Below are positions 4,258 through 11,581 of a stretch of DNA of 11,964 nucleotides, piece by piece; position 1 is the first letter of the stretch; every line of letters begins with the position of its first letter. Under the pieces are notes generated by a model. It saw only the letters and a program-made list of their open reading frames with translations. It was not told where the DNA came from and did not search any database. Source of the DNA: Escherichia coli (GTDB lineage Bacteria > Pseudomonadota > Gammaproteobacteria > Enterobacterales > Enterobacteriaceae); NCBI RefSeq assembly GCF_003334255.1, contig NZ_QOWU01000082.1, one strand, 5' to 3'. The translations under genes and the position numbers were made by a program.

Positions 4258-5607
4258 TTGGCGGGTTTTAACATCAAACATTGGTTTGCAGATGGCGCGT
4301 TTCGCACCATTATTCGCAATAGCGCCTGGTTAGGCTCCAGTAATGTCGTGAGCGCCTTGCTGGGTCTGTTGGCGCTCTCGTGTGCCGGTAAAGGGATGAC
4401 GCCCGCCATGTTTGGCGTACTGGTGATTGTGCAATCGTACGCCAAGTCGATCAGCGATTTTATTAAGTTTCAGACATGGCAACTGGTGGTTCAGTACGGA
4501 ACACCAGCATTAACCAACAATAATCCGCAGCAATTCCGCAATGTCGTCTCATTTTCCTTCTCGCTGGATATCGTCAGCGGCGCGGTGGCGATTGTCGGTG
4601 GCATTGCCTTACTGCCATTCCTTTCCCATTCATTAGGTCTGGATGACCAAAGTTTTTGGCTGGCAGCGCTCTATTGCACGCTCATTCCTTCAATGGCTTC
4701 CTCCACGCCGACCGGCATTCTGCGTGCGGTAGATCGCTTCGATTTAATTGCTGTACAGCAGGCGACGAAACCTTTTCTGCGCGCAGCGGGGAGCGTCGTA
4801 GCCTGGTATTTTGACTTTGGTTTTGCGGGTTTTGTTATTGCCTGGTACGTGTCGAATCTGGTTGGCGGCACCATGTACTGGTGGTTTGCCGCGCGCGAAT
4901 TACGCCGCCGAAATATCCATAACGCCTTCAAATTGAATCTGTTTGAGTCTGCCCGATACATTAAAGGCGCGTGGAGTTTTGTCTGGTCAACCAACATTGC
5001 CCACTCCATCTGGTCGGCGCGTAACTCGTGCAGCACAGTGTTGGTGGGGATCGTGTTAGGACCCGCTGCCGCCGGGTTATTTAAAATCGCCATGACATTC
5101 TTCGACGCCGCCGGAACGCCAGCGGGTTTGCTGGGTAAAAGTTTTTACCCAGAGGTGATGCGTTTAGATCCGCGCACCACCAGACCGTGGTTGTTAGGTG
5201 TGAAGTCCGGTTTACTGGCGGGCGGAATCGGTATTCTGGTGGCGCTCGCGGTGTTGATCGTCGGCAAGCCGCTCATTTCGCTGGTGTTTGGCGTTAAGTA
5301 TCTCGAAGCGTATGACCTGATTCAGGTGATGCTGGGCGCAATTGTGATTTCGATGCTGGGCTTCCCTCAGGAGTCATTGCTATTGATGGCGGGAAAACAG
5401 CGCGCTTTTCTCGTGGCGCAAACCATCGCCTCAATCGGCTACATCGTATTGCTGTTCATGTTCTGTCATCTGTTTGGTGTGCTGGGAGCAGCGTTTGCTT
5501 ACTTCGGTGGGCAATGTCTGGACGTGGCGCTCTCGTTAATTCCAACCTTAAAGGCATTTTTTCAGCGCCATTCCTTGCTTTATAACGCAGCCGGAGAGAA
5601 ATCCTGA
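4258..5607 (+). CDS. yghQ: MOP-superfamily (Wzx/polysaccharide-biosynthesis-type) inner-membrane flippase-like protein (YghQ-like)
   Basis: 449-aa ORF, hydrophobic throughout with many predicted TM helices. The only start that keeps the first TM segment is the TTG at 4258 (AAGG 10 nt upstream; in-frame TAA at 4243-4245; first in-frame ATG not until codon 47). The stop overlaps the next start (TGATG). Confidence 0.8.
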   Translation: MAGFNIKHWFADGAFRTIIRNSAWLGSSNVVSALLGLLALSCAGKGMTPAMFGVLVIVQSYAKSISDFIKFQTWQLVVQYGTPALTNNNPQQFRNVVSFSFSLDIVSGAVAIVGGIALLPFLSHSLGLDDQSFWLAALYCTLIPSMASSTPTGILRAVDRFDLIAVQQATKPFLRAAGSVVAWYFDFGFAGFVIAWYVSNLVGGTMYWWFAARELRRRNIHNAFKLNLFESARYIKGAWSFVWSTNIAHSIWSARNSCSTVLVGIVLGPAAAGLFKIAMTFFDAAGTPAGLLGKSFYPEVMRLDPRTTRPWLLGVKSGLLAGGIGILVALAVLIVGKPLISLVFGVKYLEAYDLIQVMLGAIVISMLGFPQESLLLMAGKQRAFLVAQTIASIGYIVLLFMFCHLFGVLGAAFAYFGGQCLDVALSLIPTLKAFFQRHSLLYNAAGEKS

Positions 5608-6431
5608 TGATGAGAAAATATTTCCCGCTTGAGGCGAGCGAGCGTCTATTTGTTGCGATTGAAGAAGATGATGTCGTTGATGCACAGGTTAGTTTGCCGC
5701 CGACTATTGCACTAAGTTGTACCACCGAAATCATTCATGATAATTACGCGTTATGCCTGCAATTCTGGCTCAATGGCGTTGATCGTCAGGAGTTACTGCG
5801 TTTAGTTCGCAAACAAGCCAAAGGCGATGAGCTGACTGCTGATGAGCGCAAACAATTTAAATACATGCGAGCGCGCTACAAGCACCTGCGTTTTGCGCAA
5901 CGGCTGTATTTAAAGAAGCATCAGGCCGGATTTTTATTCGGCAAAACGACCGTTTTTCTGGGGCGTTTTCAGGACGGCTTTCGTAACGGTAAGAAAAATA
6001 TTGTGTCGTATTACGGCAACCTGTTACGGATTTATTTAAGCTCTCCGGTCTGGTCGTTGGTGAACTATTCATTACGCCATAGCCAGTTAGAAAGCGTAAG
6101 CAGTTTTATTGCCTATCGGCAAAAGCAAATGCATACCCTGAAAGAGATTATTGCCAAACCGCGACTAACCGGTAGGGAATTTCATGATGTGCGAAAAATC
6201 ATCAGCCAGCAGGTTTCTTATTACGACACCTTAAGATCGCTTGATCCTGAAAATAAAGAGGCGTTACAGATATCCCGCTTCCTCGCCGCCATTAATGGCC
6301 TGATGGGAGATAAACACGACGACATGGTGGCGGATGATATGGAAAACCGCCAGTCGTATGATGCACCGGTGGCGCTGGATAGCGATATTCGTCAGCGCTT
6401 AGAGCTGCTGATTTCGCGTTTTCCGCTATAG
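5607..6431 (+). CDS. Hypothetical soluble protein, basic and probably helical; no recognisable catalytic motif
   Basis: 274-aa ORF starting with tandem ATG ATG, GGAGAG Shine-Dalgarno 8 nt upstream, and a 1-nt overlap with the yghQ stop. No signal peptide or TM segment seen. Confidence 0.75.
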   Translation: MMRKYFPLEASERLFVAIEEDDVVDAQVSLPPTIALSCTTEIIHDNYALCLQFWLNGVDRQELLRLVRKQAKGDELTADERKQFKYMRARYKHLRFAQRLYLKKHQAGFLFGKTTVFLGRFQDGFRNGKKNIVSYYGNLLRIYLSSPVWSLVNYSLRHSQLESVSSFIAYRQKQMHTLKEIIAKPRLTGREFHDVRKIISQQVSYYDTLRSLDPENKEALQISRFLAAINGLMGDKHDDMVADDMENRQSYDAPVALDSDIRQRLELLISRFPL

Positions 6432-6439
6432 CCGGAGCA

Positions 6440-7003
6440 ATGATGTCATCTCGTTTGATTATTGCGTTGATTATCATGCTCTTAGCCCCGGGTGTGCAGG
6501 CACACAATTTCGTCACTGGCAAAACGGTTACCCCTGTTTATATCCAGGAAGGCGGCGAGCTGCTTCTGAATAGCGACGACGAAATTCACTACCAAAAGTG
6601 GAACAGCACACAATTAGCGGGAAAAGTCCGCATTATTCAGTATATCGCCGGGCGTAAGTCGGCGAAGAAAAAGAACTCACTGTTAATTAAAGCGGTTGAA
6701 GCGGCAAACTTTCCGCAGGATCGTTTTCAGCCCACCACCATTGTGAACACCGATGATGCCATCTTTGGTACTGGCTATTTTGTTGTTGGCAAAATCGAAA
6801 AAAATAAACGCCGCTATCCGTGGGCGCAATTCGTTATTGACGGCAATGGACAGGGACGCGTTGCCTGGCGCTTGCCGGAGCAGAGTTCAACCATTCTGGT
6901 GCTGAATAAAGCCGGGCAAATTCAGTGGGCAAAGGACGGCAGCCTGACGCCGGAAGAGGTAGATCATGTCATTGCGTTGGCGCAGAAACTGATCAATGAA
7001 TAA
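6440..7003 (+). CDS. Secreted/periplasmic protein of unknown function with a Sec signal peptide
   Basis: 187-aa ORF. N-terminus MMSSRLIIALIIMLLAPGVQA|HN has an n-region, hydrophobic core and an AxA-type cleavage site. GGAG lies 2 nt before the first ATG (6440) and 5 nt before the second (6443), so the true start may be 6443. Confidence 0.8.
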   Translation: MMSSRLIIALIIMLLAPGVQAHNFVTGKTVTPVYIQEGGELLLNSDDEIHYQKWNSTQLAGKVRIIQYIAGRKSAKKKNSLLIKAVEAANFPQDRFQPTTIVNTDDAIFGTGYFVVGKIEKNKRRYPWAQFVIDGNGQGRVAWRLPEQSSTILVLNKAGQIQWAKDGSLTPEEVDHVIALAQKLINE

Positions 7004-10387: not shown

Positions 10388-10635
10388 TATTTATTCTCCA
10401 GCCATGGAAGTAGAGTTTCCATTAATTGCGCAGGGGTTTTGACATCCAGCAGAATATTAATAGGAATGGAAATATCGAATCTGTCTTCCAGCATCATTAA
10501 GAGATCCATCACTTTGATCGACTCCAGGCCAAGATCGTTGACGAGATCGCTGTCGGGCTTAATTTCCACACCGTTTTCGACCAAATCCTGTAAACAGGAA
10601 AGGATGTAATCCATTACTATTTCACGATTTACCAT
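10387..10635 (-). CDS. Acyl carrier protein (phosphopantetheine attachment site)
   Basis: 82-aa acidic ORF with the ACP-type motif DLGLESIKVMDL (serine about residue 39). An alternative start at the internal Met (residue 8) would give a 75-aa product. Sits immediately upstream of the SPT-like gene. Confidence 0.85.
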   Translation of the reverse strand: MVNREIVMDYILSCLQDLVENGVEIKPDSDLVNDLGLESIKVMDLLMMLEDRFDISIPINILLDVKTPAQLMETLLPWLENK

Positions 10636-10666
10636 AGAAACGTTAACACACCTTTAAACAAGACAA

Positions 10667-11581
10667 TCAAAATAGCCCGTTGCGTAATGCGTGTTCCAGG
10701 CTAATCCCGGGAAACCAATTAATATCTTCAGAAATACGGTTATTACTTGCCGACCAGTCGGCGTGGGTTAATTCACGAATTTTCGAGCGGGTCAGCATAG
10801 GTTCTTTACCTGCCAGGCGACTCAACGCGGTACTGATATCCGCAAGGCCGGTGAGTACCGGCAGAGGAATGCCAACCATTCGCACGGAACCGCAACGGGC
10901 GTCGGCGGCAAGTTGCTGTACGCGTTGCCAGTCATAGCCGCCGGCGACGCCATCGCATAATTCATAGGTTTGCGTCTGTATAGTTTCGGCGCTTAACCAC
11001 TGACCCACTGCTTGCGCGAAATCGGTGACGTGCAGAAAAGAGAGCTGTGTATCTGGCGCACCAAGTCGTGGCAGCAGGCCGCGCAGCATCCAGTCAAACA
11101 GCGGTTTTAACTCTTTATCGCCGGGACCATACACGGCTGTCGGGCGAAAAACGCCCAGCGTAATTTCGTCCGCCATTGCTGCCAGTCGTTGCTCGGCGAC
11201 GTATTTGGATTTTGCATACCAGGAGAGCTCGGGATGGCGCGCCGCCAGCGAAGAGATAAACAGAAAACGTTGGCAAAAGCCGCTCTCTTTTGCTGCTTGC
11301 ATCAGGCGCAGGCTGCCGTCAACGTTACAGCGGGTGAAAATCTCTTCTTTGTGCCCGCGCACTTGCCCGGCGCAATGGACCACTACGCTGGCTCCGGCAA
11401 CCAGCTCGCTAAGTGAATGAGTATCTTCCAGCGAACCGCGCACCCAGGTGAGATTATCATTGACGTGAGCGCGGGCAGTACGCGTCAATGCGCGAACGTG
11501 AAAGCCGCGGGCGAGCAGGTTATCGATAATATATTTACCGATAAACCCGGTAGCGCCCGTCACCGCGACAGTTTGATTCAT
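10667..11581 (-). CDS. NAD(P)-dependent epimerase/dehydratase-type extended SDR (putative reductase of the lipid pathway)
   Basis: 304-aa ORF. N-terminal Rossmann motif VTGATGFIG and catalytic YAKSK (YxxxK). ATG start overlaps the upstream stop (ATGA). Confidence 0.88.
   Translation of the reverse strand: MNQTVAVTGATGFIGKYIIDNLLARGFHVRALTRTARAHVNDNLTWVRGSLEDTHSLSELVAGASVVVHCAGQVRGHKEEIFTRCNVDGSLRLMQAAKESGFCQRFLFISSLAARHPELSWYAKSKYVAEQRLAAMADEITLGVFRPTAVYGPGDKELKPLFDWMLRGLLPRLGAPDTQLSFLHVTDFAQAVGQWLSAETIQTQTYELCDGVAGGYDWQRVQQLAADARCGSVRMVGIPLPVLTGLADISTALSRLAGKEPMLTRSKIRELTHADWSASNNRISEDINWFPGISLEHALRNGLF

Follow-up and report, generated by a model that had tools for sequence, protein, structure and literature searches.

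Termination–reinitiation coupling at stop/start overlaps of −4 or −1 nt has been shown experimentally in four of five native E. coli gene pairs (PMC6728339), and such coupling is mostly lost with spacers of +14 to +38 nt (PMC10666635). The coupled pairs, hyfH–hyfI, ydbH–ynbE, menD–menH and astD–astB (Huber et al. 2019, 2023; PMC6728339, PMC10666635), share the co-directional −4/−1 geometry of the junctions described here and, as here, have variable intragenic Shine–Dalgarno (SD) sequences and encode subunits of complexes as well as enzymes of pathways. Coupling in those pairs was established using reporters and premature stops, whereas the four junctions reported here are known from sequence alone. 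Not every overlap behaves in this way. E. coli bioB–bioF also has a short overlap, and BioF is an α-oxoamine synthase related to Spt (bioF profile E = 1e-99), yet bioF initiates de novo despite a weak SD and is uncoupled (PMC6728339), a warning that overlap alone is no proof of coupling.

A closely related described locus is CC_1152–CC_1168 of Caulobacter crescentus, which comprises aasR–cerR–acpR–spt, cerS, the flippase gene CC_1166 and LptC2/F2/G2. In Caulobacter, CerR is located in the periplasm and both Spt and CerS in the cytoplasm (PMC11087976). Spt uses the acyl carrier AcpR as substrate, AasR, AcpR and Spt of E. coli B are active and the BL21 orthologues have been characterized (PMC9386255); no sphingolipid product of wild-type E. 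coli is reported in the cited literature. LptF and LptG products form part of the LptB2FG heteromer, and a sphingolipid-transport role has been proposed only for Caulobacter LptF2/G2 (PMC11324152).

The window, that is, the whole 11,964-nucleotide stretch of E. coli DNA that we analysed, covers the pitB/yghT/yghS–yghR–yghQ region together with a CHAD-like gene, a YtfJ-family gene and a paralogous lptF/lptG pair. A plus-strand unit, yghS–yghR–yghQ–hyp274–ytfJ–lptF2–lptG2, which would probably serve lipid modification and export, converges on a minus-strand unit, spt–acpR–cerR–aasR, which is the known ceramide-synthesis operon. The window resembles the C. crescentus locus in its four-gene synthesis order, nearby MOP-type flippase and second LptF/LptG pair, but differs in carrying three genes for P-loop kinase-like proteins and one each for a CHAD-like and a YtfJ-family protein. 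The features are as follows.

2709–3422, plus strand: yghS, P-loop NTPase/kinase-like; first gene of the plus-strand unit.
3454–4212, plus strand: yghR, P-loop NTPase/kinase-like.
4258–5607, plus strand: yghQ, full-length MOP/Wzx-type flippase; TTG start.
5593–5598, plus strand: GGAGAG, SD of hyp274, within the last yghQ codons; anti-SD energy −6.6 kcal/mol.
5605–5609, plus strand: TGATG junction; yghQ stop TGA (5605–5607) over hyp274 ATG (5607–5609), 1 nt.
5607–6431, plus strand: hyp274, uncharacterized all-helical protein with a CHAD-like fold.
6440–7003, plus strand: ytfJ, YtfJ-family; TIGR01626, 212 bits (cut-off 151).
7034–8104, plus strand: lptF2, lptF paralogue; TIGR04407, 318 bits (cut-off 230).
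8101–8104, plus strand: ATGA junction; lptG2 ATG (8101–8103) over lptF2 stop TGA (8102–8104).
8101–9180, plus strand: lptG2, lptG paralogue; TIGR04408, 308 bits (cut-off 240).
9178–9212: GC-rich hairpin of 16 bp, lying between lptG2 and spt, which converge.
9215–10387, minus strand: spt, serine palmitoyltransferase; NF047599, 599 bits (cut-off 500).
10385–10389, minus strand: TAATG junction; acpR stop TAA (10389–10387) over spt ATG (10387–10385), 1 nt.
10387–10635, minus strand: acpR, specialized acyl carrier protein of 82 aa, directly upstream of spt.
10396–10399, minus strand: GGAG, SD of spt, inside acpR; anti-SD energy −6.4 kcal/mol.
10667–11581, minus strand: cerR (epi), NAD-dependent epimerase/dehydratase-family reductase; intact.
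11578–11581, minus strand: ATGA junction; cerR ATG (11581–11579) over aasR stop TGA (11580–11578).
11578–11887, minus strand: 3′ remnant of aasR, fatty acyl-AMP ligase/acyl-AcpR synthetase.
11888–11964, minus strand: IS1 end (insB 3′ end and inverted repeat), interrupting aasR.

In having a proteobacterial-clade Spt directly preceded by a dedicated acpR, the minus-strand unit is of the Rhodobacteria type. On the plus strand, YghQ is 33% identical to the product of the flippase gene adjoining aasR in a Caulobacteraceae MAG locus (L035), and the YtfJ-family protein has a signal-peptide-like N terminus. The hyp274 product has a CHAD-type helical-bundle fold, with no significant match to the CHAD profile in a Pfam scan, and YghS scored 24 bits against the dTMP-kinase profile, below the cut-off of 83.

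Consensus scans found 12 promoter-like sites (14.2 expected in shuffled sequence) and 22 terminator-like sites (15.1 ± 4.2 expected). Strong terminator-like hairpins occur only at 9178–9212, where the units meet, and at 1804–1832, after pitB; the former is probably a bidirectional terminator for both units. Weak hairpins of 5–6 bp lie near 5626–5644 and 8062–8075. Promoter- and terminator-like sites between genes do not exceed the shuffled expectation, which is compatible in part with the proposal in a preliminary description of this sequence that each operon is one functional unit. The proposal does not extend to the plus-strand unit as a whole, which is modular across genera (yghS–yghR, yghQ–hyp274–ytfJ and lptF2–lptG2 lie apart from one another in several) and whose first two genes are given by K-12 resources as a separate unit, yghSR.

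All four motifs that the preliminary description reported lie exactly where it placed them, each formed where the stop codon of one open reading frame (ORF) overlaps the start ATG of its successor. TGATG at 5605–5609 and ATGA at 8101–8104 are on the plus strand; TAATG at 10385–10389 and ATGA at 11578–11581 are on the minus strand and appear as CATTA and TCAT in plus-strand letters. The overlap is 1 nt for ORF pairs 4258–5607/5607–6431 and 10387–10635/9215–10387, and 4 nt for pairs 7034–8104/8101–9180 and 11578–11901/10667–11581, so that all four junctions have the −4 or −1 arrangement of coupled pairs. The bare motif is uninformative, ATGA being found 58 times on one strand of the window and 53 times on the other; only its position at ORF boundaries is informative.

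We consider it likely that these are genuine −4/−1 overlaps between co-transcribed neighbours of a sphingolipid locus at which termination–reinitiation operates to different extents: obligatory for lptG2, contributory for cerR and hyp274, minor for spt, and with aasR–cerR reduced to a relic in this genome. We infer both the co-transcription and the coupling of the four pairs. A ribosome finishing the upstream gene would rest on the next start codon and restart there, and the output of the downstream protein would then track that of the upstream one. Reinitiation is most probably obligatory for lptG2, because this gene has no SD, an invariant ATGA and an expected 1:1 pairing of its product with LptF2. 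For hyp274 and for cerR, which has a weak SD, it is probably contributory, and for spt, which retains a strong SD of its own, its role is probably minor.

Conservation was assessed in up to 36 related loci from up to 16 genera, with start codons assigned from homology and the nearest start codon. Exactly the four overlapped junctions remain overlapped or nearly so across these loci. At three of the five non-overlapped junctions the spacing differs from locus to locus by tens or even hundreds of nucleotides, and the yghR–yghQ, hyp274–ytfJ and ytfJ–lptF2 spacings range from −14 to 431 nt. Breaks in gene order fall at most of the non-overlapped junctions and never split an overlapped pair. The cerR–acpR spacer, which is non-overlapping, is equally conserved (27–34 nt), and conservation of ATGA could in part reflect separate purifying selection on start and stop rather than coupling. 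The stop/start overlaps are thus genuine and persist between genera, but overlaps of this kind are very widespread in bacteria and of low novelty; the component that is not due to chance is the evolutionary persistence of the four overlaps.

Among the four junctions, coupling by termination–reinitiation is best supported for lptF2–lptG2, because the ATGA motif (−4) is present in 30 of 31 loci, an SD is absent in 30 of 31 and homology predicts that the products pair as a heterodimer. The remaining locus has TGATG, and the junction is kept across 13 genera at 51–55% protein identity. In the window the anti-SD energy for lptG2 is +0.2 kcal/mol, and −4.4 kcal/mol is reached in just 3% of lptG2 loci. 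This differs from the E. coli pairs studied with reporters, four of the five of which depended on an SD. Housekeeping lptF is located elsewhere in the genome, making lptF2/lptG2 a second copy. The housekeeping lptF–lptG genes of E. coli K-12 (b4261/b4262) are likewise a paralogous permease pair with overlapping stop and start, although there the motif is TGATG (−1) after a strong AAGGAG. Both proteins belong by sequence to the LptF/LptG permease pair, passing the respective NCBIfam cut-offs, and LptF2 and LptG2 should pair 1:1. For this pair, therefore, the reading of overlaps as a mark of subunits needed in fixed stoichiometry is apt.

No lptB- or lptC-like gene adjoining lptF2/lptG2 was seen in the window. 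A more far-reaching proposal, which we regard as speculative and rather unlikely, is that LptG2 would be made only by ribosomes finishing LptF2, yielding a dedicated second LptFG-type lipid extractor with strict 1:1 composition, through which Enterobacterales would export sphingolipids. It would work with three P-loop kinases, which would build a phosphorylated head group, and with a MOP flippase itself coupled to a divergent CHAD-like protein.

The spacing at yghQ–hyp274 was compared in 27 related loci and never falls outside −8 to +13 nt; in 21 of them it is within −8 to +3. With its good SD, hyp274 could initiate independently, as bioF does. The next gene, ytfJ, starts 8 nt past hyp274, and this spacer carries GGAG.

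Of 35 loci compared at aasR–cerR, 27 have a −4 overlap (among them a Caulobacteraceae MAG, with GTGA) and two a −1 overlap, a total of 29. In this genome, however, the junction no longer joins two consecutive genes as had been described: the stop/start overlap is real, but the upstream 'gene' is merely a remnant of aasR comprising the last ~102 of 562 codons and matching profile positions 471–564 of 567. IS1 cuts aasR at 11888, homology other than to the insertion sequence ends at 11887, and IS1 transposase is annotated at equivalent matches. By comparison, aasR is intact (1,689 nt) in two related loci, L001 and L002 (872 bits; cut-off 600). The insertion removed the 5′ ~80% of aasR plus the operon promoter, and the junction is therefore a relic that is unable to work as proposed. 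Although cerR itself is intact, the unit lacks a functional aasR here, and the synthesis operon is probably impaired. The upstream gene is intact at each of the other three junctions.

Coupling is weakest supported at acpR–spt. The two genes overlap or abut in all 36 loci: Escherichia and Rosenbergiella have −1 and most other genera −14, with −17, −4 and +1 occurring once each; an overlap of −14 is a geometry with weaker reported coupling. The GGAG preceding spt belongs to a conserved tGGAGa in the alignment of genus representatives, and the SD is present in 97% of the 36 loci. Because of this strong, conserved GGAG and the variable overlap, spt may initiate independently of acpR; the uncoupled bioF does so with a weak SD. 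In the Caulobacteraceae locus L035, where matches (E ≤ 1e-5) are limited to yghQ, yghO and the four genes of the synthesis operon, the acpR–spt spacing is +1 and the cerR–acpR spacing 78 nt.

The same observations bear on the main alternative, namely that the overlaps are passive by-products of compact packing, arising by stop-codon loss or start-codon shifts, with each downstream gene initiated independently. They had been called pervasive, yet only four of the nine co-directional junctions overlap (the other five have gaps of 31, 45, 8, 30 and 31 nt). Since 707 of 2,987 unidirectional E. coli pairs (24%) lie at −8 to +6 nt (PMC10666635), the binomial probability of at least four overlaps in nine is 0.14, and their density is therefore ordinary for E. 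coli. The SDs of spt and hyp274, the weak one of cerR, the drift of the acpR–spt overlap and the lack of coupling at bioB–bioF agree with this alternative. The statement in the preliminary description that such coupling usually marks subunits or pathway partners is too strong as regards subunits, because complex subunits account for just 30.4% of tight E. coli pairs, against 6.8% of wide ones (PMC10666635); subunits would fit lptF2–lptG2, whereas AasR and CerR are pathway partners and not a complex. Passive packing fares poorly, however, against the retention of ATGA at an lptG2 start lacking an SD across 13 genera, against the strict coupling in four of the five E. coli overlaps tested (PMC6728339) and against the fact that precisely the four overlapped junctions stay tight. 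We consider it improbable, and favour termination–reinitiation.

Coupling could also act through RNA unfolding, in which local structure would mask the downstream start and be melted by the ribosome coming from the upstream gene. Such a mechanism is established elsewhere, at other gene pairs, and is compatible with reinitiation, but in 100-nt windows around each of the four junctions folding is no stronger than in shuffled sequence (z = +0.3 to +1.0) and lptG2 lacks the SD that an unmasked site would require, so we judge it very unlikely here.

An annotation artefact, with true starts up- or downstream and non-overlapping genes, is very unlikely: hyp274 has a second in-frame ATG at 5610 (3 nt downstream, giving +2 nt), the mechanical lptG2 ORF reaches upstream to GTG 8020 and yghQ starts with TTG, but the alternative hyp274 start would still fall inside the reinitiation range, RefSeq/PGAP annotation of near-identical strains has identical stops and starts, homologue alignments begin at residue 1 of the proposed downstream ATGs in nearly all loci, and profile HMMs match over their full length from model positions 1–2 (LptG residues 4–354 to positions 2–350; Spt 1–389 to 1–390).

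The window is E. coli chromosome, and at least 80% of it is carried by 4,072 of 5,426 complete E. coli genomes (about three quarters). It holds two convergent units, yghS-yghR-yghQ-hyp274-ytfJ-lptF2-lptG2 on the plus strand and aasR-cerR-acpR-spt on the minus strand.

Genes and other features of the window
pitB, + strand, phosphate transporter
yghT, 1843-2535, - strand, P-loop kinase-like
yghS (2709-3422) and yghR, + strand, P-loop kinase-like
yghQ, full length, + strand, MOP/Wzx flippase
hyp274, 5607-6431, + strand, 274 aa, without a family match
ytfJ-family gene, + strand, YtfJ family
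lptF2 (7034-8104) and lptG2 (8101-9180), + strand, second lptF/lptG pair, each above the NCBIfam cut-off
GC-rich 16-bp hairpin, 9178-9212, between the two convergent units
spt, acpR, cerR and aasR, - strand, ceramide-synthesis operon, convergent with the + strand unit

The minus-strand unit is the ceramide operon already known from proteobacteria; AasR, AcpR and Spt of E. coli B have been characterized biochemically, and yghO, which sits just beyond the window, encodes an N-acyltransferase (PMC9386255). The counterpart locus of Caulobacter also contains a candidate flippase and LptC2, LptF2 and LptG2, and sphingolipid transport has been proposed there (PMC11324152). Identity between yghQ and the flippase gene adjoining aasR in a Caulobacteraceae genome is 33%. 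Searches of hyp274 against Pfam, NCBIfam and PDB sequences gave no match, and the lead for this protein came from fold comparison only. YghT and YghS are named 'dTMP kinase' in RefSeq, probably an over-annotation, since the two reach only 24-26 bits with dTMP-kinase profiles whose curated cut-offs are 83-193; sequence comparison supports a generic P-loop alone. The K-12 yghQ is a truncated gene. A literature search for yghQ, yghR, yghS and yghT found no functional study of the full-length operon; a paper on chlorhexidine deals with the K-12 yghQ.

The preliminary description had listed four stop/start motifs joining consecutive genes, and each is present in the sequence.

Stop/start overlaps
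TGATG, 5605-5609, + strand, stop/ATG overlap of yghQ and hyp274
ATGA, 8101-8104, + strand, stop/ATG overlap of lptF2 and lptG2
TAATG, 10385-10389, - strand (the + strand shows CATTA), acpR and spt
ATGA, 11578-11581, - strand (the + strand shows TCAT), aasR and cerR

In every motif the stop codon of one ORF shares 1 or 4 nt with the ATG of the next, and the gene limits at these junctions are identical in the RefSeq/PGAP annotation of near-identical E. coli strains. We rejected start-codon misannotation as the source of the overlaps: at these ATGs the alignments with homologues from other genera begin at residue 1, and those with the profile HMMs of LptG and Spt at model positions 1-2. The observation as a whole is confirmed in sequence, annotation and homologue alignments.

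Stop/start overlaps are the commonest spacing among bacterial operon genes. The bare motif is uninformative, ATGA occurring 111 times in the window. As a baseline we used published E. coli figures, in which 24% of unidirectional pairs lie at -8 to +6 nt, with -4 the commonest spacing, followed by -1 (PMC10666635). Four of the nine co-directional junctions in the window are overlapped, which is unremarkable against this frequency (binomial P(>=4/9) = 0.14), and describing the overlaps as pervasive was therefore an overstatement. Such an arrangement is very common, the cluster that contains these examples had been described before, and the overlaps, implicit in public annotation, are ordinary and add little alone. 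The component beyond chance is their evolutionary persistence, and the gain lies in a sharper picture of the locus rather than in the overlaps themselves.

We measured all junctions in loci encoding relatives of Spt, taking one genome per species and locating genes by tblastn. Of 31 loci from 13 genera, 30 have ATGA at the lptF2-lptG2 junction and one has TGATG; the lowest protein identities in this set are 51-55%, found in Pseudomonas and Stutzerimonas. Among 35 loci, the aasR-cerR spacing is -4 in 27 and -1 in two, and yghQ and hyp274 lie between -8 and +13 of each other in 27/27. The acpR and spt genes overlap or abut in all 36 loci, with -1 in Escherichia and Rosenbergiella and -14 in most genera. 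At the remaining plus-strand junctions, spacing across related loci was 45-431 nt (yghR-yghQ), 8-226 nt (hyp274-ytfJ) and -14 to 129 nt (ytfJ-lptF2). The cerR-acpR spacer stays at 27-34 nt in all proteobacterial genera and in 33 of 34 measured loci from the series L003-L036, the exception being a Caulobacteraceae MAG (L035) with 78 nt, so conserved spacing is not peculiar to overlaps.

This spacer, at 10636-10666 on the minus strand, is also conserved in sequence within Enterobacterales (TTTTGATT...AGGTGTG...TTTCTATG), and its AGGTG lies unusually far from the ATG, at ~12 nt. In the loci L007-L031, acpR extends 14 nt into spt in most genera, its TGA falling among the conserved codons for MGLYDK; a TAA that yields TAATG was gained in Escherichia and in Rosenbergiella. 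This is a shift of the stop codon, and the spt start and Shine-Dalgarno (SD) sequence are unchanged. In Sodalis sp. dw_96 (L010, ~8565-8805), 227 nt have been inserted where aasR meets cerR; the insert looks as if part of the 5' end of cerR (Rossmann-motif codons) had been duplicated, and the original ...CAATGA junction is kept downstream.

Among native E. coli pairs with such short overlaps, four of five were strictly coupled when tested, and reinitiation is 40-80% lower with a +14 nt spacer and nearly abolished at +38 nt. In the window coupling remains an inference; the junctions belong to different regimes, and lptF2-lptG2 is the strongest candidate for true coupling among them. The lptG2 gene has no SD sequence (anti-SD duplex, +0.2 kcal/mol; only 3% of loci reach -4.4), and reinitiation by ribosomes ending lptF2 would be the only obvious route to its translation. 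The housekeeping K-12 lptF and lptG overlap too, but through TGATG after a strong AAGGAG. The lptF2-lptG2 junction is a clean natural SD-less junction that could serve as a model of reinitiation. At spt, the tGGAGa is invariant, an SD is found in 97% of loci and the length of the overlap drifts; spt may be largely self-initiating, as is the case for bioB-bioF, whose BioF is a relative of Spt. The cerR and hyp274 junctions are an intermediate regime, cerR having only a weak AGGA (-4.3 kcal/mol) and hyp274 a GGAGAG (-6.6 kcal/mol).

An explanation of coupling by RNA unfolding was dropped. Folding of 100-nt windows at the four overlapped and three non-overlapped junctions revealed no structure beyond shuffled controls (z -0.4 to +1.0; 0.3-1.0 at the four overlaps), and this mechanism therefore has no support. 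A consensus scan for promoters and terminators gave counts no higher than in shuffled sequence, with nothing convincing at the junctions.

The overlaps had also been read as marking subunits or pathway partners needed in fixed stoichiometry. By homology this suits LptF2 and LptG2, since LptG2 should pair with LptF2 as LptG does with LptF; the fit is poorer for the other pairs. AcpR is an acyl carrier, and acylated AcpR is the substrate of Spt; AasR and CerR act at different pathway steps, and in Caulobacter CerR is periplasmic and Spt and CerS are cytoplasmic (PMC11087976). Complex subunits make up 30.4% of tight pairs in E. coli versus 6.8% of wide pairs, so that tight spacing is enriched for them without being a rule. 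Overall, the earlier interpretation is partly supported.

Treating each operon as one functional unit is reasonable for aasR-cerR-acpR-spt. For the plus-strand unit a division into three modules that relocate independently across genera (yghS-yghR, yghQ-hyp274-ytfJ and lptF2-lptG2) is the better description. Gene order breaks at yghR|yghQ and ytfJ|lptF2 in Sodalis, Serratia sp. M24T3 and Rosenbergiella, and yghSR is a separate unit in a K-12-based table. No separation of an overlapped pair was found in any related locus compared; the four pairs behave as inseparable units in evolution, within a sphingolipid locus that is otherwise modular. Relative to aasR-cerR-acpR-spt, the blocks yghT/yghS-yghR, yghQ-hyp274-ytfJ and lptF2-lptG2 shift position and orientation between the window and loci L010, L011, L023-L027, L034 and L036. 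Pseudomonas and Stutzerimonas loci reaching past the synthesis operon contain lptF2-lptG2, and yghQ, hyp274 and ytfJ were not found in the fetched DNA. A second acpR and spt, at 79% and 69% identity and with a -14 overlap, sit on a different contig (contig03) of Serratia sp. M24T3 (L022), with no other cluster gene within 10 kb.

In this genome, reading the synthesis operon as an intact functional unit is wrong, because its promoter and first gene have been lost to IS1. Both window ends, 1-77 and 11888-11964, are 77 nt of IS1 sequence in the same orientation, and homology to uninterrupted genomes ends at position 11887. The right-hand IS1 interrupts aasR, of whose 562 codons only the final ~102 are left, matching positions 471-564 of the 567-position profile; aasR is intact in the E. 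coli loci L001 and L002. As the promoter region lies between aasR and yghO in intact strains, it is displaced here, and the synthesis operon is probably impaired. The ATGA at 11578-11581 ties an aasR remnant to cerR, making this one of the four junctions defunct in this genome; the 'ORF' that runs over 11578-11901 from a TTG start was called mechanically. The insB stop TAA of IS1 (11905-11903, - strand) precedes by 1 nt the TTG (11901-11899) that opens the remnant frame; speculatively, an occasional ribosome ending the transposase could restart in the remnant and go on to the cerR ATGA.

The exact IS1 junctions of either window end had no perfect match in 5,426 complete E. coli genomes, of which 7-8 have nearby IS1 insertions. 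Ends of 77 nt are the expected look of a k=77 short-read contig bounded by repeats, and two direct IS1 copies around 11.8 kb could allow the entire stretch from pitB to cerR to be deleted or moved. Decay of the locus recurs in other strains: 23CRST030 (L001, 4218-6494) has IS1 inside pitB, and Ec-RL2-1X (L002) has an internal stop in the lptG paralog (12024-13103) and yghO cut by IS1 (17575-18438). An assembly of Alkalicoccobacillus porphyridii contains a 273-nt contig at 1.5x coverage (L058) that is 100% identical to the convergent ends of E. coli lptG2 and spt, almost certainly a contaminant from E. coli.
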